A stretch of DNA of 64,000 bases from Thermoanaerobaculia bacterium (GCA_035556715.1 DATMER010000074.1:3737-67736), one strand, 5' to 3'; positions 16,557 through 64,000 are shown, counted from the stretch's first letter. Translations and numbers: made by a program. The notes: generated by a model from the letters alone, not told the origin.

Positions 16557-19031
16557 CTACGCCCCCTTGAGCGCCACCGTGGGATTGAGCCGCGCCGCCC
16601 GGCGGGCCGGGAGATAGCAGGCGATCAGGGAGACCAGGGCCAGGATCACGGGCACGGCCACGAAGCTGAGCGGATCGGTCGCCTCCACCCCGTAGAGCAT
16701 GCCGGCGACGGTGCGGGTCAGGGCCAGCGCGCCCGCCACCCCCGCAATCACCCCCCAGGCCACAAGCGCCATGCCCTGGCGCACCACGAGCCGCTGCACG
16801 TCCTGCGGGCGGGCGCCGATCGCCATGCGGATGCCGAACTCCCGCCCGCGCAGGCTCACCGAGTAGCTCAGGAGGCCGAACAGGCCCACCACCGCCACGC
16901 CCAGCCCGAGCAGCGCGAAGAGGCCGGCGACCTCGGCGTACATCCGCTGCTCGGCCAGGCCATTCGCCATGTGCTCGCGGCAGCTCACCAGGCTCACGAC
17001 GGCCAGGTCCGGATTGGCTTCCAGGAGCGCCCGCCGCAGCGCCGGGGTCAGGGTGGCCGCGGGCGCGGCCGAGCGCACCAGTAGCGTCATGCGCGGGTGG
17101 TTGCGCTGCCCGCTGGAGAGGTAGATCACCGGCTCCGGCTCCTCCATCAGCTTCGTGCGGACGTCCTTCGCCACTCCCACCACCTCGAAGGGCTTCTCCG
17201 CGACCTCCGGGGCGGCCAGGTCGACCAGGCGCAGGAGGCGGCCGACGGCGGGCTTCTCTCCCCAGAGCTTCTGCGCCATGCCGCGGCTCACCACCACCGC
17301 CCGCGGCGCGTCCTCGCGGTCCCGCTCGTCCAGGGCCCGTCCGGCCAGGATCGGGATGCCCACGGTCTCGAAGTAGGCCGGCGCCACCGAGTTGAAGGCG
17401 ACCTCGGTCTGCTCGTCCTGGCGGTCCAGGCTCGCGGCCAGCAAGGTCCGCGTCCACCCCGCGACCGGCAGGACGTGGGCCAGGCTCGCGGAGGCCACGC
17501 CGGGGGTCTCCCTCGCCTCGTCCAGCACCCTCTGATAGATGTTGGCGCCGCCCTCCCCCTCCATGACGTTGCGCGGGATGTTGACCGTGACCAGGAGCAG
17601 TCCGTCAGGGTCGAAGCCAGGGTTCACCCCCTGCGCCTGTCCCAAGGTGCGGACCAGCAGGCTGCCGGTCAGGAGGAGGAGGACCGACAGGGCGACCTGG
17701 GCCACCACGAGGACCTTGCGCGGCGCGAGGCCGCTGTGACCTCCTCCGGAGCCGCTCGCCGCGGCGTCGCTCTTGAGGGGGCCGAGGAGATCCCCGCGCA
17801 TCACCCGCAAGGCCGGGCCGAACGCGCCGAGGAAGGCGCAGAGCACCGTGGTGAGCGCGGCGAAGGCGGCGATGCGGCCGTCGACCTGCAACAGCCGAGT
17901 CCCCGCGGCCCAGTCGCCCAGGCCGCTTGGCGAGGTCATCACGTAGGACTCGATCCTCTGCCCGAGGACGGCGGCCACGCCCAGGCCCAGCACCCCGCCC
18001 ACCAGGCAGAGCACCAAGCTCTCGGCCATCACACCGGAGAGCAGCCAGGCCCGGCTGGCGCCGAGCGACGCCCGGATCCCCCACTCCCGCTGCTTCGCGA
18101 TGGCCCGCGCCAGCAGCAGGTTGGCGATGCTCACGCACGCCAGGAGCAGGAAGGCGGAGGCCACGCCCATGAGCATGCGCGTCCGGTCGAGCCACTCCGG
18201 GTCCCCCCACCCGGGGTCGTACTCGCCAAACAGGACCACGTCCATCCGGCGCGGCTTGGCGTCGGGAAGCGGCACCGCGGCGTCGAGCGACCGGCCGAGC
18301 ACGTCCAGCGCGGCCTGCGCCTTCTCCCGGCTCACCCCCGGAGCGAGGCGGCCGGTGAGGTTCAGCCACTGGGCGTCGCGCTCGTGGAGCCGCGACGTCG
18401 CGGTCATCCGGTCCGTCAGGTTCGCCGGCACGTAGATCGCCGAAGCCAGGTTCGCTCCCTGGAAGCCCTCGGCGGCGACGCCGACCACCATCACGGCCAC
18501 GCCGTTGATGCGCAGCTCGCGTCCCACGACGTCGGGGCTCCCGCCCAGAGTGCCCTGCCAGAAGCGGTGGCTGAGGACCACCACGGGCGGTGCGTCCGGC
18601 CGGTCGTCCGCGGGCTGAATGAGCCTGCCCATCGTTGGACGGGTGTTGAAGAACCCGAAGAAATTGCCCGTCACCAGCCCGCCCCAGGCGAACGAGGTCC
18701 GCTCGCCCTCGGAGATGGAGGCGCCGAAGCGGGACGTGCCGACGAGGTCCACGACGGCTGTCTGGCTCTTCAGGAAATCCTGGTACTCGAGGTAGGAGAT
18801 GGCCCTGCGCGGCTCCTCCTCGGTCCCGGAGTAGACCGAGACGACACGCTCGGGGTGGGGAGCATCGATCGTCGGCCAGAGGAGCGCCGCCAGGTAGGCG
18901 AACAGGGCTGTGTTGGCCCCGATGCCGAGCGCCAGCGTGAGCACGGCCGGCAGCATCACGGCCGGCTGGCGGGAGAGCGACCGGAAGGCGGTCGAGAGCT
19001 GTCGCACGGCATCGCGCATGGGAACCTCCAA
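16557..19031 (-). CDS. ADOP-family ABC transporter permease (duplicated MacB-like periplasmic domain + FtsX permease)
   Basis: 824 aa. N-terminus MRDAVRQLSTAFRSLSRQP..LTLALGIGANTALF; two FtsX-like 4-TM modules (second ends LPARRAARLNPTVALK[GA]); no cognate ATPase adjacent. Confidence 0.8.
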   Translation of the reverse strand: MEVPMRDAVRQLSTAFRSLSRQPAVMLPAVLTLALGIGANTALFAYLAALLWPTIDAPHPERVVSVYSGTEEEPRRAISYLEYQDFLKSQTAVVDLVGTSRFGASISEGERTSFAWGGLVTGNFFGFFNTRPTMGRLIQPADDRPDAPPVVVLSHRFWQGTLGGSPDVVGRELRINGVAVMVVGVAAEGFQGANLASAIYVPANLTDRMTATSRLHERDAQWLNLTGRLAPGVSREKAQAALDVLGRSLDAAVPLPDAKPRRMDVVLFGEYDPGWGDPEWLDRTRMLMGVASAFLLLACVSIANLLLARAIAKQREWGIRASLGASRAWLLSGVMAESLVLCLVGGVLGLGVAAVLGQRIESYVMTSPSGLGDWAAGTRLLQVDGRIAAFAALTTVLCAFLGAFGPALRVMRGDLLGPLKSDAAASGSGGGHSGLAPRKVLVVAQVALSVLLLLTGSLLVRTLGQAQGVNPGFDPDGLLLVTVNIPRNVMEGEGGANIYQRVLDEARETPGVASASLAHVLPVAGWTRTLLAASLDRQDEQTEVAFNSVAPAYFETVGIPILAGRALDERDREDAPRAVVVSRGMAQKLWGEKPAVGRLLRLVDLAAPEVAEKPFEVVGVAKDVRTKLMEEPEPVIYLSSGQRNHPRMTLLVRSAAPAATLTPALRRALLEANPDLAVVSLVSCREHMANGLAEQRMYAEVAGLFALLGLGVAVVGLFGLLSYSVSLRGREFGIRMAIGARPQDVQRLVVRQGMALVAWGVIAGVAGALALTRTVAGMLYGVEATDPLSFVAVPVILALVSLIACYLPARRAARLNPTVALKGA

Positions 19032-20031: not shown

Positions 20032-22889
20032 CTACCCCACCGCCCCCTCCAACCACCGCACCTCCCGCTCCCGCCGTCCATACCCGGTCTCGTTCACCAG
20101 CTCCCGCGCCCGCGCCACATGCCGCCGCGCTTCGGCGAGATCCCCCTGGTCCCGGCAGAGGCGCGCCCACTCGAGGTGCGCGTCGCACTCGTACAGGCGC
20201 ATCGGGCCGCGCTCGGCGATTTCCAGGGCTTCGTTGAGGTCAGCGGCGGCGCCGGCAAAGTCAGAGCAAAAGCGCCGGAGGGTGGCGCGAGCCAGGAAGC
20301 CGCGGGGCAGATCGTCCTCCTGGCTGGCCCGCCGCAGGCCGTCTACCGCCTGGTCCAGTTGCTCGGCGGCTTGAGCGAGCCCGGCGGCGCGGTCTTCCCC
20401 AGTGGCTGCCGGCTGAGGGGCTGTCAGAGCCAAGCCGAGGTGGGCGCGGCCCAGGGTAAGGTCGTCGAGGGCAGTGCTGAGGAGCGAGTACCAGCTTTTT
20501 CCATACTTCAGCGTCTGCCTCGCCCGCTCCAGCACCTCCCGGCAGGCCTGTCGGAACCGCTCCACCTCCTCCAAGCGGGAGCCCACCCCGGCGAGCCCAT
20601 CCAGACCGGCTCCGACCTCCGGCTCCGACCGGCCCAGCAGCAGATCGCAGTACCGAAAACCCCCTTGCGAAGCGAGCGGGGGGTACTCCGGCTGCCGCTC
20701 CGCATGCATCGCCTCGGCCTCGCGGAAGGCCGCCGCGCTCTCCTCCCACCGGCCCGCTTGGTTCAGGGCGTCGGCCCAGGTCGTCCGATTGACAATCCGC
20801 TGAAAGGCATCGCCGCTACGGTCGGCCAACTCGACGCTCTGCTCGCCGAATGACATGGCGCGCGGCACGTCCCCTAGGGTCAAGGTCAGCTCGCTGAGGT
20901 TGCTGCCGATGATCGCGGCGTTCTTCCACTTCTCCTGAGCGATGCGCGCCTCCAGACTCACCTTCATCGGCTCTATCGCCTCCGCCAAGCGGCCCAGGGC
21001 GCGGAGGACGATGGCGGCCTCGTTCAGGATGAACGCCTGATCCGCTGCGGTAACGTGGGCGGAGGGCTGGGACCAGGGGCGATCGAAGAAGCCCGCCAGC
21101 GCCGTCAGCCCCGAGCCGAAGGCTCCGAGCTTCCTCAAACTGAAGTGCTCGTTCCCCCGCAGGATCCGCCGCCAGTAGACTTCGTCCATTGCCTCCTGCA
21201 GCCGCCCCGCCCGACAGCCGTGGATGATAGCGGCGTAGAGGGGTTGCATCGCTTCTAGGGTGTCAGGAAGGTCCGGTGCTGCCTGGCGCAGGTGCTCGTA
21301 GAGGCGCCGGTTGCCTTCCTGCCAAGCGTCGGAGCGGTGGCTCTCGAGTTCCTCCGCGAAGCAGGCGCGCACCAGGGGATGAGCATCGAGGGTCTCCGGC
21401 TCGCGCGCGTCGGCCGCCGCCAGCAGACCGTGATCCCGCAGGGTGGCGATGGCGAGCCGCCAGTCTTCGTCCGAGAGGCCCACCAGGGGCTCCGTAAGCC
21501 CTGGGATCGGCGGCACGGCACGCAGGGCCTTCAGGACGTCGGCCTCCGCGGGCCGGTCGAAGAGGCCGAGGAGACGGAGGATCGCGAGCTCTGGACCCTC
21601 TCCCAGCCAGTGGGCGTAGGTGGCGATCACATGGAAGGCGCGGCCGCCCTGTTTCTCGTCGGCCCGGTGGAGATCGATCTCCCGCCGCTTGCGGATGTCG
21701 CCGCCGTGGGCCCGGCGAAGGAAGTTGCCGAGAAGGGTCAGGGTGAGGGCGTGTCGCTTGAAGTCCTCGGCTGCGGCGCGTAGCTCGCTCTCCCGGCCAT
21801 TCACGCCGAGTTGGCGAAGAAGATCCACCGCAGCGCCAAGCTCTAGTTCCTCCAGGGGGATCTGCGATGCCGTGCTTGGGGAGCCGGAGAGGTCGGCGAT
21901 CCGTTCCCGGGTGGTAACCACGCAGAGGCCCGGGTTGCCCGCGGCAAGACTCTTGAGGAGGGCGGAGAGGCCGGGGTCCTTGAGGCGGCCCTCGATCTCC
22001 GGCCGGCCCGGCGGGTATTGCAGGGGCTCGACACCGTCGAGGACGAGCAGAGAGCGCTCCTTCCTGATGAGTCCTGCGAGGCGGGCGCCGCGGTCGTGAA
22101 GGGAGACGGCCTTGGGGTCGGGATCACCGAAGAAACGGAGGGCGTGGTCGATGAACGCTCGGCGGAGGTGTTCTGGTCTTTGCTCCCCTGGCTGTAGAAC
22201 GACCAGTCCAGCACCCGCACGGCCCCGCGCCAGCCCTCGGCCGCCATGCGGTCCATCCAGCGGGCGACCAGCGCCGACTTGCCGACGCCCCCGAAGGCCA
22301 CCAGGGTGAGGACGTGGATGGTTGGGTTCTCCCAGGCTGCATCCAGCCGGGCGATCTCTGCCTCCCGGCCGACGAACTTCGAGCCGGGGATGGGTAGACG
22401 GCCGGTGTCGAGGAGGGGACCCGGGTAGGGGGGCGCCGGGCTCGTGGAGGACGCCGTTGGGCCGGGAAAAACGGGTTGCTGCGCCGGCTTGGGTCGGTCG
22501 TCAGAGACCGCGGTGAGCACGGCCGCCTTGGCCACGTCGGCAGGCAGCCCCACCAGATCGGCATAGATCAACGGCTTGAGCAGTCCGGTGGGTGAGCACG
22601 GCGCAACCCGCAGAGGGATCAATTTGCGGTCCTCGCCACGGGGATCCTGCGCGAAGGCAGCAGCCCATTCCGGCTGGGTGTAGTCGGCCTTGAGGTAGTT
22701 GTCGGTCAGGACCACCACCGTCTTGCGTGTCTCGCCGGCCGCCTTCTGCATCTCCAGGACGAAGTTGCCACCAGGCCGGAAGTCCCACGGCTGATAGACC
22801 ACCTGATAGCCCGCCTCTTCGAGCATCCAGGCGATCCAATCGGCCCACGCCTTGTCGGCACTATTGAAGCTGACGAAGAAGTCTTTCAT
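20032..22889 (-). pseudogene. TIR - NB-ARC (STAND P-loop NTPase) - TPR protein, apparently frameshifted
   Basis: Frame A (22889 to ~22170): bacterial TIR domain then Walker A VAFGGVGKSALVARW. Frame B (~22200 to 20032): Walker B LLVLDGVEP, RNBS-B GLCVVTTRE, GLPL-like ALTLTLLGNFL, then TPR repeats. The two frames overlap near 22160-22200. Confidence 0.65.
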
Positions 22890-53351: not shown

Positions 53352-53625
53352 GTGGCGCGAGAGATTGTGAGCGGCAGGCGCGCGGCGCACGCCCTGAGAG
53401 GGCGGCTTCCGCCCTTTAAAGGGCGGTGTCCGCCCTCTGAGGGACGATGCTCGCCCTTTGAGGGACGATGCCCGCCCTCTGAGGGGCAGCCTTCGCCCTT
53501 TGAGGGACGATGTCCGCCCTTCGAGGGACGGTCTCCGCCCTTCGAGGGGCGATGCCCGCCCTTTGAGGGATGGCATCCGCCCTTTGAAGGCGACGGCCGC
53601 CCCGGAAGGGCGAGCGCCTCCGCAT
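53352..53625. repeat. Tandem array of ~13 x 21-bp direct repeats
   Basis: Unit consensus CGCCCTYYGAGGGACGATGYC, each containing a CCCT-N3-AGGG mini-palindrome. ORFs on both strands here show heptad periodicity and are repeat artefacts. Confidence 0.75.
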
Positions 53626-56411: not shown

Positions 56412-56450
56412 CAGGGATAGTTTACGAGGAGATCTCCGGGAAGTTCGGAT

Positions 56451-56584
56451 CCCTCACCCCCTGGCCCCCTCTCCCATCGCACTCCCGCCCTCCCGGGAGA
56501 GGGGGAACCTTTCTTATGCCTCCTCTCTTTTCCCCCTCTCCCGGTGGAAGGGAGGGGATGGGAGAGGGGGCCAGGGGGTGAGGG
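56451..56584. repeat. Palindromic repeat family, full copy G
   Basis: CCCTCACCCCCTGGCCCCCTCTCCC...GGGAGAGGGGGCCAGGGGGTGAGGGG between the divergent phosphatase and M28 genes. Confidence 0.7.
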
Positions 56585-56607
56585 GTCCGTCGGGTAGACT
56601 GCCCTGA

Positions 56608-57527: not shown

Positions 57528-57923
57528 ATGAACGACGCAACCTACGTAACCGACGCCCATGCCGCCATCGACGCCGCCCGGGAGCAGGCAGCCCGGGAGG
57601 GCAAGCGGGTGGCCGTCGTCTTCGGCGCCAACTGGTGCCCGGACTGCTACGCCCTGGAGAAGGCGCTCACCCACCGGCTCGTGGAGCCGATCCTGGAGCC
57701 CAGCTACGTGGTCGTGAAGGTCACGGTGGGCAACCGCAACCAGAACCTCGACCTCATGGCCGACTACGGCATGGACGTGGTGAGGGGCATCCCCGCCATC
57801 GCCATCCTGGAGCCCGACGGCACCCTGATCAAAGCCCAGACCGACGGCGAGTTCCGCAACGCCAACTCGCTGCTATCCGTGGCCGAGATCGCGACCTTCT
57901 TCCACAAATGGGCGCCTAAGTAG
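57528..57923 (+). CDS. Thioredoxin-fold protein (WCPDC)
   Basis: VAVVFGANWCPDCYALE active-site motif; GAGGGAG RBS 7 nt upstream of ATG 57528; ~130 aa. Confidence 0.7.
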   Translation: MNDATYVTDAHAAIDAAREQAAREGKRVAVVFGANWCPDCYALEKALTHRLVEPILEPSYVVVKVTVGNRNQNLDLMADYGMDVVRGIPAIAILEPDGTLIKAQTDGEFRNANSLLSVAEIATFFHKWAPK

Positions 57924-57924
57924 G

Positions 57925-57996
57925 CCCTCACCCCCGTCCCCTCTCCCGGGGCGGGTGTGCTTGGGAGGAGCGGGAGAGGGGGCCGGGGGGTGAGGG
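57925..57996. repeat. Palindromic repeat family, short copy H
   Basis: CCCTCACCCCCGTCCCCTCTCCCGGGG...GGGAGAGGGGGCCGGGGGGTGAGGG (arms only, ~72 bp). Confidence 0.65.
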
Positions 57997-58027
57997 TCTG
58001 TTCCAAACCGCCCCCCGCCCCTGTCTC

Positions 58028-58891
58028 ATGTCTTTTGACATGAGGCTACCGGTCCGCAAGCTCGTCCTGACCACGCTCTACGCAACCGCGCTGGCGGTCA
58101 TCGTCCTCTACGCGTGGGAGGGCAGCTCGTATTACTCGACCCCCCTGATCGAGCGCCCGCGGCACGAGGATTACTGGACGCTCAAGCCCGGCGGCTCGCG
58201 CGGGCACGCTCTTGGCATCGCGGGCTCTTCGCTGATGGTCGTGATGCTGGTCTACTCGGTGCGCAAGCGGACCAAGGCGTTGCGCGGCGCGGGCAAGCTC
58301 CGGGACTGGCTCGACTTCCACATCTTCTGCGGCGTGATCGGGCCGCTGCTGGTGGTGCTCCACAGCTCGTTCAAGGTGCACGGGCTGGTAGCGCTCAGCT
58401 TCTGGTCCATGGTGGTGGTGGCGCTCTCCGGGGTATTGGGGCGCTATCTCTATCTCCAGATCCCGCGCACGCGGGCGGGCGACCAGCTCAGCCTCGCGGA
58501 GGTCGAGGAGCTGAACGCGGACCTCACCCGGCGGCTGCGCGAGGAGCTCGGCGAAGCGCCCCTCCAGGAGCTGGAGGCCCTCGCGGCCGGCAGCCTGAAG
58601 CCCGGGACGCCGCTCCTGCCCCTCCTCCTGCGCATGCCGGTCGAAGGGGTCCGCCTGCGCTGGCGGCTGCGCTCTTTCCGGAGGAGGTATCGGCGGCATG
58701 GAGGGTCCACCGAGCTGCTCCGGACGATCCGCCAGAAGGCGCTCCTCCAGCGCCGGCTGCTCCTCTGGAGCCGCCTCCAGGAGCTGTTCCACCACTGGCA
58801 CGTCCTCCACAAACCCTTCGCGGTCGTGATGTACGTCTTCATGATCGTCCACATCGTGGTCGCGGTCCTGACCGGCTACGCCTGGCAATAG
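58028..58891 (+). CDS. His-rich polytopic membrane protein, candidate cytochrome b-type quinol-interacting subunit
   Basis: About 5-6 TM helices with conserved His (HALGIAGSS, FHIFCGVIGPLLVVLH, HHWHVLHKPFAVVMYVFMIVH). First gene of the cytochrome cluster; family not identified. Confidence 0.45.
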   Translation: MSFDMRLPVRKLVLTTLYATALAVIVLYAWEGSSYYSTPLIERPRHEDYWTLKPGGSRGHALGIAGSSLMVVMLVYSVRKRTKALRGAGKLRDWLDFHIFCGVIGPLLVVLHSSFKVHGLVALSFWSMVVVALSGVLGRYLYLQIPRTRAGDQLSLAEVEELNADLTRRLREELGEAPLQELEALAAGSLKPGTPLLPLLLRMPVEGVRLRWRLRSFRRRYRRHGGSTELLRTIRQKALLQRRLLLWSRLQELFHHWHVLHKPFAVVMYVFMIVHIVVAVLTGYAWQ

Positions 58892-58892
58892 G

Positions 58893-60662
58893 ATGCGAAA
58901 GGGGATCGTCCTGGCGCTGCTCCTCGCCTCGGCCCCCCTCGCGGCCCAGCTCTCTCCCGGCAAGCTCAGCCAGCCGCACGCCAAGCTGGAGGGGAGCACC
59001 AACTGCCTCAAGTGCCACCAGGCGGCGCAGGGGGTGGCTCCCGCGCGGTGCCTCGACTGCCACACCGCGCTGAAGAGCCGGATCACCGCCGGCCGCGGCC
59101 TTCACGCCCGCCCGGGCTACCAGGCCTGCCAGACCTGCCACATCGAGCACCACGGGCGGGAGTTCCAGCTCATCGACTGGGGGAAGAAGGGAAAGGCCGG
59201 ATTCGACCACCGCCTGACCGGATGGCCCCTGGAAGGAGCCCACGCCAAGCAGGCGTGCGGCTCCTGCCACCGCAACGAGAAGAAGACCTTCCTCGGGCTC
59301 GAGCGCACCTGCCGCTCCTGCCACCAGGACGAGCACCGCGGCCAGTTCGCCCAGCAGTCCTGCGTCGCCTGCCACACCCTGACGGCTTGGAAACCGCCCG
59401 CGAAGTTCAACCACGCGAAGACCGCCTTCCCGCTCACCGGCCAGCACCAGGCCGTGGCCTGCGCGAGCTGCCATCCGAAGAAGAGCGACGCGAGGGGCGA
59501 GTTCCTTGCCTTGAAGGGGGTCGCGCACCAGAGCTGCTCCAACTGCCACAAGGACCCGCACCAGGGACGGTTCGGCGCCACCTGCCAGCAGTGCCACTCC
59601 ACCGCCGGATGGAAGACGGGCGCCATGGCCAACTTCAATCATGACCGCACCGGCTTCCCGCTCACCGGGCGGCACAAGGCCGTGGCCTGCGCGAGCTGCC
59701 ACAAGTCCGGAAGCTTCACGAAGCTGGCGCACCAGCGGTGCACCGACTGCCACAAGGATCCGCACCAGGGGCGGCTCGGCACGACCTGCCAGCAGTGCCA
59801 CTCGACCGCGGGATGGGCCTCGGGGAGCCGCGCGAAGTTCGACCACGACCGGACCCGCTTCCCCCTGCGCGGCCGGCACGAGAAGGTGGACTGCCAGAAG
59901 TGCCACACCTCCGGCCGGGGCCTGCGCTTCGCAAAGTTCCAGGCATGCGCGGACTGTCACAAGAACGTCCACGCGGGCCAGATCGCCAGCTCCACGTGCG
60001 AGAGCTGCCACACGGTCGGGGGCTTCTCCCCCTCGACCTTCACCCTGGAGCGGCACCAGGAGAAGACCGACTATCCCCTCCAGGGAGCGCACCTCGCCGT
60101 GCCCTGCATCGCCTGCCACAAGAAGAATGCGGCCGGGGTGATCCGCTTCCGCTGGGAGTCGACCGAGTGCCAGGCCTGCCATGGCGATCCCCACAAGGGG
60201 GAGATGACTCGCGTCCAGGGTCCGCAGGGGTGCCGGACGTGCCACTCGATCAACTCCTGGTCCCACCTGGCAGCCTTTGATCACTCCCGGACCGGATTCC
60301 CCCTGGATGGCGGGCACCAGCGGGTGTCCTGCGGCGGATGCCACAAGCCGGGCAAAGACGGTACGGTCAGCTTCAAGGGCACCCCGAAAGCCTGCAACGC
60401 CTGCCATGGCGATCCCCATGAAGGGCAACTCGTCCAGGCAGGTTGCCAGTCCTGCCACTCGGTGCAGGCCTGGTCCCGCGTCACGTTCGACCACGATCGG
60501 CACTCGCGCTTCAAGCTGGTGGGGGCCCACAGCCGCCTCGCCTGTAGCGCGTGCCACCGTTCAGAGAGCCGGGGCGGAAAGACCGTCGTCCGCTTCAAGC
60601 CTCTGCCGGTCACCTGCGAGGGGTGCCACGCGACCCCCACTGCGCGAGGGAGGACCTCATGA
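58893..60662 (+). CDS. Multiheme c-type cytochrome, 23 CxxCH motifs
   Basis: Signal peptide; 23 canonical CxxCH heme-binding sites counted (CLKCH ... CEGCH), regularly spaced. Confidence 0.9.
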   Translation: MRKGIVLALLLASAPLAAQLSPGKLSQPHAKLEGSTNCLKCHQAAQGVAPARCLDCHTALKSRITAGRGLHARPGYQACQTCHIEHHGREFQLIDWGKKGKAGFDHRLTGWPLEGAHAKQACGSCHRNEKKTFLGLERTCRSCHQDEHRGQFAQQSCVACHTLTAWKPPAKFNHAKTAFPLTGQHQAVACASCHPKKSDARGEFLALKGVAHQSCSNCHKDPHQGRFGATCQQCHSTAGWKTGAMANFNHDRTGFPLTGRHKAVACASCHKSGSFTKLAHQRCTDCHKDPHQGRLGTTCQQCHSTAGWASGSRAKFDHDRTRFPLRGRHEKVDCQKCHTSGRGLRFAKFQACADCHKNVHAGQIASSTCESCHTVGGFSPSTFTLERHQEKTDYPLQGAHLAVPCIACHKKNAAGVIRFRWESTECQACHGDPHKGEMTRVQGPQGCRTCHSINSWSHLAAFDHSRTGFPLDGGHQRVSCGGCHKPGKDGTVSFKGTPKACNACHGDPHEGQLVQAGCQSCHSVQAWSRVTFDHDRHSRFKLVGAHSRLACSACHRSESRGGKTVVRFKPLPVTCEGCHATPTARGRTS

Positions 60663-61495
60663 CGAAGCCGCTTCTCCTCCAACTCCTGCTGGCCGCCGGC
60701 TTCCTGATCGCGATCATTGCAGGGACGGCTCAGGGCCAGGAGACTGGAGGCAATCCCCACGGCCCTCTCCGCGTGGGATGCGAGACCTGCCACTCCCCCG
60801 AGGGGTGGCGCCCGCTGCGCAAACCCCTGCCCTTCGACCACGGCAAGGAGACCGGGTTCCCCCTGGTCAAGAGCCACCGGGAGGTCGCGTGCCTCGGCTG
60901 CCACCAGGACCTCCGGTTCCAGCGCGTGGCCACGGCATGCGTGGACTGCCATCGCGATCCCCACCGGGGAGAGCTGGGGCTCTCCTGCGAGAGCTGCCAC
61001 TCGCCCCACGGCTGGGACAGCCGGCGCCAGGTCTTCGAGATCCACAACGCGAGCCTGTTCCCGTTGACCGGGGCGCACACGGCCCTGGACTGCGGGTCGT
61101 GCCACCGGGGGAGCCCGCCGAACGAGTTCCGCGGCACGCCGAGGGACTGCTTCTCCTGCCACGCCGAAGACTACCGCCGCGCCCAGCCCGACCATGTCCG
61201 CTCCGGGTTCCCGACGCAGTGCGAGACCTGCCACACCACCTCGGACTTCTCGGACGCGGACTTCCGGGCGCACGACGCGCGGTTCTTCCCCATCTTCTCG
61301 GGTGTGCATCGGGGGGTCTGGGATAGCTGCTCGAGCTGCCACACCTCGGTCAACCAGGGGAACTTCCAGAACTTCACCTGCCTGACCTGCCACGAGCACC
61401 GGCGGAGCGAGATGGACGACGAGCACGACGACGTCCGTGCCTACCGCTATGAGAGCAACGCGTGCCTGTCCTGCCATCCGCAGGGGAGGGAGTAG
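60659..61495 (+). CDS. Multiheme c-type cytochrome, 10 CxxCH motifs
   Basis: ATG overlaps the upstream stop (ATGA); signal/TM MTKPLLLQLLLAAGFLIAIIAG; 10 CxxCH sites. Confidence 0.85.
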   Translation: MTKPLLLQLLLAAGFLIAIIAGTAQGQETGGNPHGPLRVGCETCHSPEGWRPLRKPLPFDHGKETGFPLVKSHREVACLGCHQDLRFQRVATACVDCHRDPHRGELGLSCESCHSPHGWDSRRQVFEIHNASLFPLTGAHTALDCGSCHRGSPPNEFRGTPRDCFSCHAEDYRRAQPDHVRSGFPTQCETCHTTSDFSDADFRAHDARFFPIFSGVHRGVWDSCSSCHTSVNQGNFQNFTCLTCHEHRRSEMDDEHDDVRAYRYESNACLSCHPQGRE

Positions 61496-61497
61496 AG

Positions 61498-63240
61498 ATG
61501 AACCAGTCCTTCTTCTGTAGGGGCGGGTCTTGTGCCCGCCCGGGTGGGCGGAGATCCCGCTCCACGATCCCGCCGCATCTCGTTCCCGGAAGTTTCCCCC
61601 GCCCGGGCGGGCACAAGACCCGCCCCTACATTTACTTACTCTGTCTGCTGATTGCCGGGCCGCTGCTCGCCCAGAACCCCCTGGCGGTGCGCTATCGATC
61701 CGCGGACACCATCTATCTCACCGCCGGACGAGCCGCGGGGCTGGAGGTCGGGGACCGCCTGGAGGTCGTGCGAGGGAGTGAAGTCATTGCCGAGATCGAG
61801 GTGATCTTCACGGCCGAGCACTCGGCCTCCTGCCGCGTCCTGAGCGAGCGCAAGCCGGTCCAGCCGGCGGACCGGGTGCGGCGGATCGGCGAGACGACAC
61901 CGGCTCCATCCCCTCAGGAAACTCCCGCACCTGCCCCGGCCCCGCAGCCGGAAGAGCCGCGGCGATCCTTGTTCGGAAACCGGGAGAGCTACCGTCCCTC
62001 CCGGACCCGCGTGACCGGCGCGGTCTCCCTCGATACGGAGACCTTCTCCGACGGGACCGAGGACCGCCGCGACTTCAACCGCACCGCGGCCCGGCTCAAT
62101 CTCCGGGTGCGGGACATCGCCGGCACTCCGCTCCAGGTCCGCCTGCGGATGAGGTCCCTGAACGAGGAGCGCGAGCGGCGGCTGACCGGCGGCATCCCCG
62201 AATCCACGAGCCGCGACCGCCTCTATGAGCTGGCCGTGATCTACGAGCCCGACGACGCCCGCTACGGCTTCCGTCTCGGCCGGCTCGGCACCAGCCCGTT
62301 CCTGGGGATCGGCTATCTCGACGGCGGCCTCGGCAAGATGCGGGTCGTGGGACCGCTGGAGCTGGGCGGTTTCTACGGCCGGCGGCCGAACGTCGAGGAG
62401 CTGGGCTTCGATGGCTCCGGCTCCAAGTACGGCCTCTTCGCCAGGATTGCCCCGGAGTCGAACGCGGTCGAGTTCCTCGTCGCGGGCATCCGCGAGGAGG
62501 GCGACACGGACATCAGCCGCGAGTACGTGGCCGTCGAGACCCGGTACGACGCGGGCGAGCGCTGGAGCTTCCACCAGCACGCCGAGCTGGACCTCAACAC
62601 CGGCTGGCGCGAAGAGGCCGCGGGCAGCACCTCGCAGCTCTCCCAGCTCGCGCTCACCGCCATCGGCCGGGTCTCGGACCGTAGCCGGGTGGTGATCTCC
62701 TACGACCGCTACGAGCGCTACTTCACCGAGGAGACCCGCTTCCTCCCCACTGAGCTGTTCGACGACCTGACGCGCCAGGGGCTGAGGGTGAGCTGGCAGG
62801 CGGGACCGCCGCGCGGGCTGAATTTCTCGGTGACCGGCGGCGCCCACTTCGCGGATGCCCCCGATGAGGATATCGAAGGACTGGAGTCCGACACGAGCTA
62901 CTCCCTGGGCCTCGGCGCCTGGCATCCCGAGCTGTCCGGCCTCAAGCTCTTCGTAGGCGCCGACGTGCTGGGCTTCACCAATCCGACCACCGACGGCATC
63001 CTCGTCAACGCCCGGTTGGGCCGGCGCTTCAACCCGGGCCACGAGCTGAGCTTCACCCTGGGCGGCACCCTCTCCCGGCAGCCGCTCCTGGTCGACGAGG
63101 AGACCACCACGCAATGGGCGAGAGCTTCGCTCTGGCTGGAGCTGCCCCTGGACCTCTTCGGCCAGGCCGAGCTCGAAGTCCTGACCGGCGACGAGATCGA
63201 GGGTCAGCGCCTGAGCCTCGGCCTCGGGTACCGCTTCTGA
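61498..63240 (+). CDS. Putative outer-membrane beta-barrel protein (porin partner of cytochromes); start uncertain
   Basis: Signal-like [15 protein letters not shown]; alternating amphipathic beta-strand pattern; C-terminal LGLGYRF with terminal Phe. The only in-frame ATGs (61462, 61498) lie upstream of or within the palindrome. Confidence 0.5.
61519..61626. repeat. Nested palindrome: two 28-bp inverted arms, each itself a 7-bp-stem hairpin
   Basis: TAGGGGCGGGTCTTGTGCCCGCCCGGG ... CCCGGGCGGGCACAAGACCCGCCCCTAC, ~48 nt apart, starting 24 nt after the 10-heme cytochrome stop. Confidence 0.6.
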
Positions 63241-64000
63241 TGTCCGAGCCGGTCCTCGTCTGGGGCGCGGCCCTCCTGATCGCGGGCCTGATCGTCCTCC
63301 CCTACCTCCTCCGGTTCCGCCGGAGGGTGAAGCTGGACCGGGAGCGCAAGGAGGAGGCCGCGGCCCTGGGCATCGACAAGCCCGCGGCCCAGTTCCCCTA
63401 CATCGACCCGAGCCGCTGCATCGGCTGCGGCGCCTGCGTGAAGGCCTGCCCCGAAGGGGACGTGCTCGGTGTCGTGGGCGGCACGGCCGTGGTGGTCAAC
63501 GGCCTGAAGTGTGTGGGGCACGGCCGCTGCGAGGAGGCCTGCCCGGTCGGCGCGATCCAGGTCGGCCTCGGCGATCTCAAGTCGCGGGAGGACGTCCCTC
63601 TCCTCGACGATCATTATCAGACCACCGTCCCCGGCATCTACATCGTGGGCGAGCTCGGCGGGCTCTCCCTGGTCCGCAACGCCGCGTTCCAGGGACGCCG
63701 GGTCATCGAGCACCTGCCCCGGATGGAGAGCACGCCGGGAGTCCTGGATGTGGCCATCGTCGGAGCAGGACCGGCGGGCTTGAGCGCGGGCCTCACCGCC
63801 GCCACCTCCGGCCTCTCCTACGCGGTCTTCGAGCGGGAGGAGACCCTGGGCGGCAGCCTCCTCCACTACCCGCGGCGCAAGATGGTCCTCACGCAACGCG
63901 TCGAGCTGCCCCCCTGGGGATCGCTGGACCGCGAGGAGTACTCCAAGGAGGTCCTCCTCGATCTCTTCGAAGGGCTGGTCCGGGATCACACTCTCGACGT
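63240..64000 (+). CDS. 4Fe-4S ferredoxin domain + FAD/NAD(P)-binding oxidoreductase (runs off window end)
   Basis: ATG overlaps the OMP stop (TGATG); N-terminal TM; two Cys clusters CIGCGACVKACP and CVGHGRCEEACP; Rossmann motif VAIVGAGPAGLSAG. Not in the ORF track because there is no stop before the window end. Confidence 0.7.
   Translation, partial: MSEPVLVWGAALLIAGLIVLPYLLRFRRRVKLDRERKEEAAALGIDKPAAQFPYIDPSRCIGCGACVKACPEGDVLGVVGGTAVVVNGLKCVGHGRCEEACPVGAIQVGLGDLKSREDVPLLDDHYQTTVPGIYIVGELGGLSLVRNAAFQGRRVIEHLPRMESTPGVLDVAIVGAGPAGLSAGLTAATSGLSYAVFEREETLGGSLLHYPRRKMVLTQRVELPPWGSLDREEYSKEVLLDLFEGLVRDHTLD

Follow-up and report, generated by a model that had tools for sequence, protein, structure and literature searches.

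The 64,000-nt stretch of DNA analysed here, from a Thermoanaerobaculia bacterium (GCA_035556715.1, DATMER010000074.1:3737-67736; hereafter, the window), ends in a cluster of five genes, here designated g1 to g5, which may encode a conduit carrying electrons across the whole cell envelope. The closest described kind of system appears to be PCC3, a type of porin-cytochrome cluster that was recognised by comparing genomes of Proteobacteria, most of them oxidisers of iron (He et al. 2017, PMC5566968; PMC9900912); the likeness is one of architecture, motifs and published descriptions, and not of direct sequence alignment. In the reading that we prefer, and to which we give an even chance of being right, the operon would form a PCC3-type conduit of 33 haems and a barrel that has its own cytoplasmic electron-input enzyme. 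An initial annotation of the same DNA had also likened the cluster to a porin-cytochrome conduit, and this part of it has gained support: g4 is modelled as a 22-strand barrel, g2 and g3 are cytochromes of the wire type, and a cytochrome gene adjoins the barrel gene in 39 of 39 related loci (see below). The five genes are as follows.

58028-58891, + strand: g1, an inner-membrane protein of 287 residues without CxxCH
58893-60662, + strand: g2, a secreted 23-haem c-type cytochrome of 589 residues
60659-61495, + strand: g3, a secreted 10-haem c-type cytochrome of 278 residues
61498-63240, + strand: g4, an outer-membrane protein of 580 residues without CxxCH
63240-64000, + strand: g5, an Fe-S/FAD oxidoreductase, cut by the end of the window after 253 of about 436 residues

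All five open reading frames are present on the + strand, co-directional as first described, and their GC content at third codon positions (0.85-0.93) is of the coding type. The overlapping start and stop codons attributed to the cluster exist at two of its four junctions, g2/g3 (ATGA) and g4/g5 (TGATG), whereas g1/g2 and g3/g4 are separated by spacers of 1 and 2 nt, respectively. A single operon, as proposed in the initial annotation, is still the natural reading of g1-g5, because no terminator-like site was found on the + strand within the cluster (58028-64000); no Rfam family and no sigma-70-like promoter was found around it. Among the open reading frames called in the window, CxxCH motifs are confined to this cluster. 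Two of its products, g1 and g4, are 100% identical to VN493_15305 and VN493_15320, hypothetical proteins of a Thermoanaerobaculia metagenome-assembled genome. The acidobacterial origin implied in the initial annotation is thus correct.

A scan of one genome per species yielded 39 loci with a g4 homologue, in Thermoanaerobaculia, Holophagales, Vicinamibacteria, 'Multivoradales' and unclassified Acidobacteriota. In every one of them, the gene directly upstream of the barrel gene codes for a cytochrome with a C-terminal decahaem module related to g3 (40-48% identity over g3 residues 41-278), the cytochrome that contains the module having from 10 to 46 haems in these acidobacterial relatives. In the window, too, it is the 10-haem g3 gene that adjoins g4, and not the 23-haem gene, which had been placed next to the barrel gene. 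The inner part of the cluster is equally well preserved: g1 is always followed by a cytochrome of 20 or 23 haems in the acidobacterial loci, and every locus whose flanking sequence is long enough has both g1 and g5 or has neither. The sub-modules occur in several orders, from g1-cytochrome-cytochrome-g4-g5 to cytochrome-g4-g5-g1-cytochrome or g1-cytochrome-g5-cytochrome-g4, and divergent arrangements also occur.

The module extends to a second phylum. In the cultured Bacteroidota species Emticicia oligotrophica DSM 17448, the plasmid pEMTOL02 has ccsA and, after it, homologues of g1 (37% identity, with both Wx3Hx13H motifs; see below) and g5 (39.5%), a 23-haem cytochrome (37.6% identity to g2), a 40-haem cytochrome whose C-terminus matches g3 at 41%, and a barrel gene; the 538-residue product of the latter aligns with g4 over 439 columns, the N-terminal domain included, with an hhalign probability of 96.7%. 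In Bacteroidota the identities for g1, g5 and g2 range from 36 to 42%, the g2 orthologues have exactly 23 haems, and g1 and g5 are directly adjacent. Members of the g5 family are numerous in Saprospiraceae, Spirosomataceae and Aquirufa, and a metagenome-assembled genome of Saprospiraceae shows the order g1-g5-23 haem-68 haem-12 haem, followed by a 545-residue protein without a Pfam match. In one Bacteroidota genome, the trio of g1, g5 and a 23-haem cytochrome has no barrel nearby (L045/L046, 8134-12173 and 15616-19320). This trio is followed by a Crp-type regulator and by nosL, nosD and ABC-type (nosF/Y-like) genes, i.e. nosLDFY. Searches of plasmids gave no match for g4 and only Emticicia for g2; a match to g5 in Pseudoalteromonas was set aside as an unrelated paralogue in a glycosyltransferase cluster.

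The barrel-less trio suggests that the inner module may supply acceptors in the periplasm as well. Taken further, it would favour a reading in which no extracellular conduit exists, the cytochromes serving as a periplasmic store of electrons or a supply to reductases, and g4 being an ordinary porin or structural outer-membrane protein that is merely co-transcribed. We regard such a purely periplasmic role as improbable: the cytochrome with the decahaem module abuts the barrel gene in all 39 loci and in Emticicia despite the rearrangements, the g4 barrel family has no members annotated otherwise, and the adjacent cytochromes of 40-68 haems would be hard to explain.

The full length of g5, 436 residues, is known from the syntenic orthologue in a Holophagales genome (L001, on a contig of 8.4 Mb). 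The part of g5 within the window comprises an N-terminal transmembrane helix, two Fe-S motifs and the GxGxxG motif for FAD, with Pfam matches to Fer4 families, Pyr_redox_2 and Pyr_redox_3; the order of domains is thus a transmembrane anchor, a two-motif ferredoxin-like domain and an FAD/NAD(P)H domain of the thioredoxin-reductase fold. The closest relatives of solved structure are YpdA/Bdr, TrxR and TrxR-type ferredoxin-NADP reductases (E-values of 1e-20 to 1e-13). Conserved among 28 g5 sequences are CxxCxxCxxxCP, CxGHxxCxxxCP, GAGPAG, GGGDSA and SYRRxKLxR; in the second Fe-S motif, CxGHxxCxxxCP, a His takes the place of the second Cys in 25 of the 28. A run of Arg and Lys residues follows the transmembrane helix, which places the C-terminus inside the cell, and no Tat motif is present. 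In the full-length orthologue, the flavoprotein part contains only one Cys, and CxxC is absent, which rules out the role of a thioredoxin reductase in spite of the labels given by JGI. We propose that g5 is the point at which electrons enter from NAD(P)H. In L001, a sixth co-directional gene, for a protein of 238 residues without a Pfam match, follows g5 with an overlapping start (13056-13772); it is kept in close relatives only and was not counted as part of the system.

The AlphaFold2 model of g1 (pLDDT 86) has five transmembrane helices (residues 9-31, 57-79, 91-113, 120-144 and 247-281) and a helical cytoplasmic insert of about 100 residues. The enrichment for which g1 had been described as His-rich is mild (11 His, 3.8%), but six of these residues, H46, H98, H112, H258, H261 and H275, are invariant in the family, as are S134, G135 and G138. 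The motifs of the family are W94x3H98x13H112 on the third helix, S134GxxG138 on the fourth and W257x3H261x13H275 on the fifth. Since Wx3Hx13H is present on both the third and the fifth helix, with an invariant 13 residues between H98 and H112 and between H261 and H275, the two pairs could ligate two stacked b-haems, and both sequence and model lead us to predict that g1 is a two-haem-b transmembrane electron carrier of the type called 'IMP' in PCC3. Resemblance to known families is weak: among 24 members of the g1 family, weak Pfam matches to families of di-haem-b proteins were obtained for all, namely to DUF4405 (24/24), Ferric_reduct (18/24) and Ni_hydr_CYTB (16/24), g1 itself falls below the Pfam gathering threshold for PF01794, PF14358 and PF01292, and a g1 profile run against all chains in the PDB gave chance matches only. 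A whole-library profile search nevertheless places 3946 cluster representatives in the family at E<=0.001; among the best 150 of these 3946, the remote clusters sampled are metagenome proteins without informative names, apart from one from a Myxococcota metagenome-assembled genome.

The initial annotation had considered g1 as the entry point for quinol, and here our reading differs. The same conduit could be coupled to the quinone pool, with g1 acting as a (mena)quinol dehydrogenase or quinone reductase and g5 as an accessory or regulatory redox enzyme; the conduits served by CymA, ImcH and CbcL do start at quinol, and g1 has a weak likeness, in structure and in Pfam matches, to cytochrome b561/CybB, which are quinone-reactive families. 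Furthermore, the IMP of PCC3 was proposed to be a quinone-active cytochrome b, in proteobacterial clusters described as consisting of four genes with no g5-like partner (He et al. 2017, PMC5566968). Against this stand the strict co-occurrence of g1 and g5 across two phyla and the fact that no quinone-site motif was identified in g1. Shorter relatives of g1 are also informative. On plasmids of Methylophaga pinxianii (L043, 7073-10427) and Roseomonas mucosa (L044, 6958-9648), they are preceded by an FNR-type protein (FAD_binding_6, NAD_binding_1 and a 2Fe-2S domain) and then followed by a 7-haem cytochrome; this NAD(P)H-type partner is non-homologous to g5 and occupies the same position. For MsrQ, moreover, the idea of a quinol donor has been replaced by that of an NAD(P)H reductase (PMC12525009). 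Because g1 and g5 are strictly present or absent together and adjacent in Bacteroidota, and because a non-homologous NAD(P)H enzyme lies beside the short g1 relatives, g5 is the favoured candidate for the donor to g1; entry through NAD(P)H and g5 is more likely than entry through quinol, and we judge coupling to the quinone pool to be rather unlikely, if a serious contender. The Methylophaga and Roseomonas pairs, for their part, suggest an NAD(P)H-driven periplasmic reductase linked to metal handling. Both plasmid loci lie in islands for resistance to copper or heavy metals, with genes for a multicopper oxidase, CopB and a P-type ATPase.

The haem counts of the two cytochromes were as first reported, with exactly 23 CxxCH motifs in g2 and exactly 10 in g3. 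No CxxCK was found in either, and neither this motif nor CxxxCH or CxxxxCH occurs in any protein of the cluster; together with Pfam matches that are all of the wire-type c7/c3 families, this excludes catalytic multihaem enzymes of the nitrite/hydroxylamine type, a possibility for which CxxCK motifs had been singled out as a sign. In g2, which matches Cytochrome_C7 (E=5e-27), Cytochrom_c3_2 and Cytochrom_CIII, the haems are arranged in eight repeats of about 70 residues, each with three haems except for the last, which has two, following the pattern F[DN]H..T.FPL.G.H....C..CH ... C..CH.D.H.G ... C..CH; 28 further His residues are free to act as distal ligands. The best start of g3 is the ATG at 60659, the longest open reading frame beginning at a GTG at 60551, and g3 matches Cytochrome_C7 and Paired_CXXCH_1. 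Both proteins have enough additional His for bis-His ligation, and the number of residues per haem is 25.6 in g2 and 27.8 in g3. The N-terminus of g2, MRKGIVLALLLASAPLAAQ, reads as a signal peptide, that of g3 is an ordinary signal peptide, and no lipobox Cys is present in either. The families named in the initial annotation (MtrA/MtrB, PioAB and Ext) found no support, since both cytochromes scored far under the cut-offs of the curated DmsE/MtrA, HmcA, ExtN and ExtO models (for DmsE/MtrA, TIGR03508, 32.1 bits for g3 and 30 bits for g2 against a cut-off of 192.2; for ExtN and ExtO, a chance-level 15 bits for g2 against 200), and g4 had no match in NCBIfam, MtrB/PioB included. A sequence search of all PDB chains gave no significant match for g2 or g3. 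We propose that g2 is a wire spanning the periplasm and that g3 sits in, or threads through, the g4 barrel. In c7-type polymers such as GSU1996, each haem contributes about 1 nm, and an extended, 'nanowire' shape is expected.

For g4, we prefer as start the ATG at 61498, which follows GGGAGGGAG; the longest open reading frame, from a GTG (61462-63240), would give 592 residues, the length used in the initial annotation, in which a barrel was foreseen. The prediction is supported: the protein (580 residues from the preferred start) is modelled by AlphaFold2 with high confidence as a 22-strand beta-barrel, the best structural matches of the model are outer-membrane barrels, and the C-terminus, ...GLGYRF, has the aromatic residue that had been noted. 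A g4 profile run against all PDB chains gave no match. From its N-terminus, g4 consists of a signal peptide, the n-region of which is long, then a small beta domain in the periplasm, a disordered Pro-rich linker and the barrel; the parts that can be placed on the DNA, and an inverted repeat within the first 130 nt of the g4 frame, are as follows.

61516-61630, + strand: hairpin with arms of 44 nt and a loop of 27 nt
61681-61884, + strand: small periplasmic beta domain of g4, residues 62-129 (AlphaFold2)
62008-63234, + strand: 22-strand barrel of g4, residues 171-579 (AlphaFold2)

The hairpin lies between the start codon of g4 and the core of the signal peptide, is translated as the unusually long n-region, and dominates the predicted RNA fold of 61480-61660 (-112.3 kcal/mol, z = -7.9). 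A 24-nt core of its arms is identical, and in the same place, in a Holophagales orthologue of g4 whose protein is only 78% identical, and is found nowhere else in the window; equivalents of the hairpin are at 10046-10160 in L001 and at 10010-10124 in L003, whereas more distant g4 homologues have short N-termini and no hairpin. The hairpin may set the ratio of g3 to g4 expression or the stability of the mRNA. The NCBI gene call for g4 (517 residues) begins after it and so loses the signal peptide.

In the path that we propose, g5, anchored in the inner membrane by its transmembrane helix and facing the cytoplasm, would oxidise NAD(P)H and pass electrons from FAD to two Fe-S clusters. The two bis-His b-haems of g1, with H98/H261 towards the cytoplasm and H112/H275 towards the periplasm, would then carry them across the inner membrane. 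The next carrier would be the soluble g2, which with its 23 haems should be long enough to bridge the periplasm; g2 would deliver them to the ten haems of g3, lodged in the 22-strand g4 barrel, and thence to an acceptor outside the cell, which could be Fe(III)/Mn(IV) minerals, humics or perhaps O2. Outward flow is favoured because the potential of NAD(P)H (about -320 mV) is far lower than that of the c-haems and Fe(III)/humics, and because electrons would move with the membrane potential. The direction could also be the reverse. Multihaem wires are bidirectional in principle, and PCC3 has been found in, and an inward model proposed for, Fe(II)-oxidising bacteria (PMC5566968; PMC9900912), so that the cluster might take electrons from Fe(II), Mn(II), reduced humics or a cathode outside the cell and deliver them inward to g1. 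Flow to NAD(P)+ by way of Fe-S and FAD would, however, have to climb in redox potential and work against the membrane potential, and the cluster has no gene for an energy-coupling subunit. To our knowledge, the Thermoanaerobaculia, Holophagales and Bacteroidota hosts do not include lithotrophic iron oxidisers, which also counts against import. No marker of iron oxidisers is found near the cluster, nor any other CxxCH among the called open reading frames of the window, of which part were scanned with Pfam. Import would be possible for the outer module and fits poorly with an inner partner of the NAD(P)H type; for the cluster as a whole we hold it to be quite unlikely.

Several points weigh against an NAD(P)H-fed outward conduit. 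Six acidobacterial loci, three with full 10-kb flanks and three with partial ones, have the cytochrome and the barrel without g1 and g5 nearby, and in one Bacteroidota genome the inner trio lacks a barrel gene nearby. The quinone-active IMP proposed by He et al. (2017, PMC5566968) and the four-gene composition of the proteobacterial clusters both point elsewhere for the donor. PCC3 itself is functionally unverified (bioRxiv 10.1101/2025.02.27.639646), and g1-g5 are known from gene content, motifs, predicted folds and linkage across phyla, from which the binding of cofactors, the contacts between proteins, NAD(P)H as donor, the outward direction and the acceptor are inferred; the seating of g3 within g4, like the docking of g5 onto g1, is a proposal.

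If electrons do enter from NAD(P)H, a more specific description can be entertained. The system might be a quinone-independent NAD(P)H:extracellular-acceptor oxidoreductase that spans two membranes, a 'split NOX/ferric reductase' in which over 30 c-haems lead from a b-haem core across the periplasm and a barrel in the outer membrane, a tentative idea that we think is more apt to be wrong than right by a good measure. The main role may also be something other than anaerobic metal respiration, such as redox dumping, reductive iron acquisition or the production of extracellular superoxide, because the module is also found in Bacteroidota (Emticicia, Saprospiraceae, Spirosomataceae and Aquirufa) that we take to be largely aerobic organisms of freshwater and sludge. 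NAD(P)H-dependent production of extracellular superoxide has been reported for many heterotrophic bacteria, and a quinone-independent module, if that is what the cluster encodes, would be a molecular candidate for it.

The haem conduits of the outer membrane known as Mtr and Pcc/Ext draw on the quinone pool and so belong to an energy-conserving respiratory chain. One fed by NAD(P)H would instead serve to vent electrons or to reduce extracellular acceptors, bypassing the quinone pool and running with the membrane potential, and multihaem clusters in metagenomes from soil, sediment and sludge could then not automatically be equated with 'metal respiration'. What is new relative to PCC3 is the conserved input enzyme of the NAD(P)H type and the spread of a five-gene module over Acidobacteriota and Bacteroidota. 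Clusters of the PCC3 type, untested for almost a decade, thereby gain a concrete and testable mechanism at the inner membrane, with E. oligotrophica DSM 17448 and its plasmid pEMTOL02 as the cultured example that makes the model testable. The cluster is, in addition, a conserved candidate route of extracellular electron transfer for Thermoanaerobaculia, Holophagales and Vicinamibacteria, in which such routes are poorly defined.

Elsewhere in the window, the nearest feature to the cluster occupies the 104-nt spacer between a thioredoxin-like gene and g1 and is likely to be the upstream boundary of the operon.

57922-57999, no strand assigned: G-rich inverted repeat (hairpin)

A related copy of this palindrome, with the core GGGAGAGGGGGCCRGGGGGTGAGGG, is at 56446-56589, and the two elements flank an M28-peptidase/thioredoxin-like gene pair, the second being directly upstream of g1. 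They look like intergenic repeats of the REP type, and Rfam gave only sub-threshold matches of the microRNA-hairpin type for them. About nine copies of a 21-bp tandem repeat, consensus CCGCCCTTTGAGGGACGATGC, with units that are partly palindromic, lie at 53382-53602, between the gene for a TPR protein and a gene for a protein of 211 residues. On the - strand, 10501-16069 holds a pair of the class II lanthipeptide type, a LanM-like synthetase (DUF4135 and LANC_like, 1064 residues) and an ABC exporter with a C39 peptidase domain (735 residues), with a MacB/FtsX-type permease nearby (16557-19031). At 20032-22889, also on the - strand, the gene for a TIR-domain protein (348 residues) overlaps the start of that for a TPR-containing protein of 629 residues; the two could be a defence or signalling pair.

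The likeness to PCC3 extends to each of the four published components. There, the IMP has about 300 residues and five transmembrane helices, with SGxxG on the fourth and Wx3Hx13H on the third and fifth (PMC5566968); g1 (287 residues, five modelled helices) carries exactly this signature, which is also that of the IMP of PCC4. The periplasmic cytochrome of PCC3 is built of repeats and has 21, 24 or 27 haems, with a median of 26 residues per haem, and the second, 'extracellular' cytochrome has a variable number, from 10 to 35 or more (PMC5566968; PMC9900912). The values here are 23 haems (20 or 23 in relatives) in repeats at 25.6 residues per haem for g2 and, in the position of g3, 10 haems in the window, 10-46 in Acidobacteriota and 40-68 in Bacteroidota. 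The g4 barrel gene is clustered with multihaem cytochrome genes, as in PCC3, and its 22 strands equal those predicted for the porin of the Leptothrix cholodnii PCC3, in which the 24-haem cytochrome consists of eight repeats of 60-66 residues. The differences are the fifth gene, g5, which co-occurs strictly with g1, and the hosts, Acidobacteriota and Bacteroidota here and Proteobacteria there. As published, PCC3 has four genes and an inward, quinone-linked model (PMC5566968; PMC9900912), and the word 'ferredoxin' is absent from the paper of He et al. (2017, PMC5566968). The literature searched held no description of the five-gene variant or of the Emticicia multihaem clusters.

With MtrCAB, MtoAB and PioAB (6R2Q), the cluster shares a decahaem gene immediately upstream of a barrel gene and the principle of a barrel that encloses a haem wire; it differs in sequence (g3 reaches 32 bits where the DmsE/MtrA cut-off is 192, and g4 has no MtrB/PioB match) and, from MtrCAB, also in having no MtrC-type surface lipoprotein in the cluster and in an entry that would not be by way of CymA. 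The porin-cytochrome genes described earlier from Acidobacteria, in Holophaga, have barrels of the MtrB and ExtB/E types, another family than g4 (PMC7399161). The c7/c3-type haem repeats of g2 and g3 recall the c7-type polymers of Geobacter, e.g. the dodecahaem GSU1996, whereas the curated models compared for the Pcc/Ext systems gave g2 no more than chance-level matches, to ExtN and ExtO.

The inner module, in turn, resembles Fre-MsrQ and the NOX and FRE proteins, in which an NAD(P)H flavoenzyme passes electrons to a His-ligated b-haem membrane protein and on to the far side (PMC12525009; for bacterial NOX, PMC5676040). In Fre-MsrQ, the flavoenzyme is cytoplasmic, and it was here that the quinol donor gave way to the NAD(P)H reductase (PMC12525009). 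The H-x13-H spacing on two helices of g1 is common to two-haem proteins of the ferric-reductase domain (PMC5566968), NOX/FRE among them. Unlike Fre-MsrQ and NOX, however, g1 has five helices and not six and stays below the Pfam thresholds, g5 has the thioredoxin-reductase fold and two predicted Fe-S clusters and is neither of the Fre nor of the FNR type, and the acceptor would be a 23-haem cytochrome, not O2 or MsrP. The inner module also resembles a group of clusters in Supplementary Table 6 of He et al. (2017), in which a cytoplasmic redox protein is encoded with a five-helix HX13H membrane protein (192-310 residues) and a periplasmic multihaem cytochrome (7-18 haems); a porin gene is present in two exceptions only, and in the view of the authors most of these clusters probably have no role beyond the cell. 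The plasmid loci of Methylophaga and Roseomonas can be placed in this group. The cluster described here differs from it in that an inner module of this kind is joined to an outer-membrane module.

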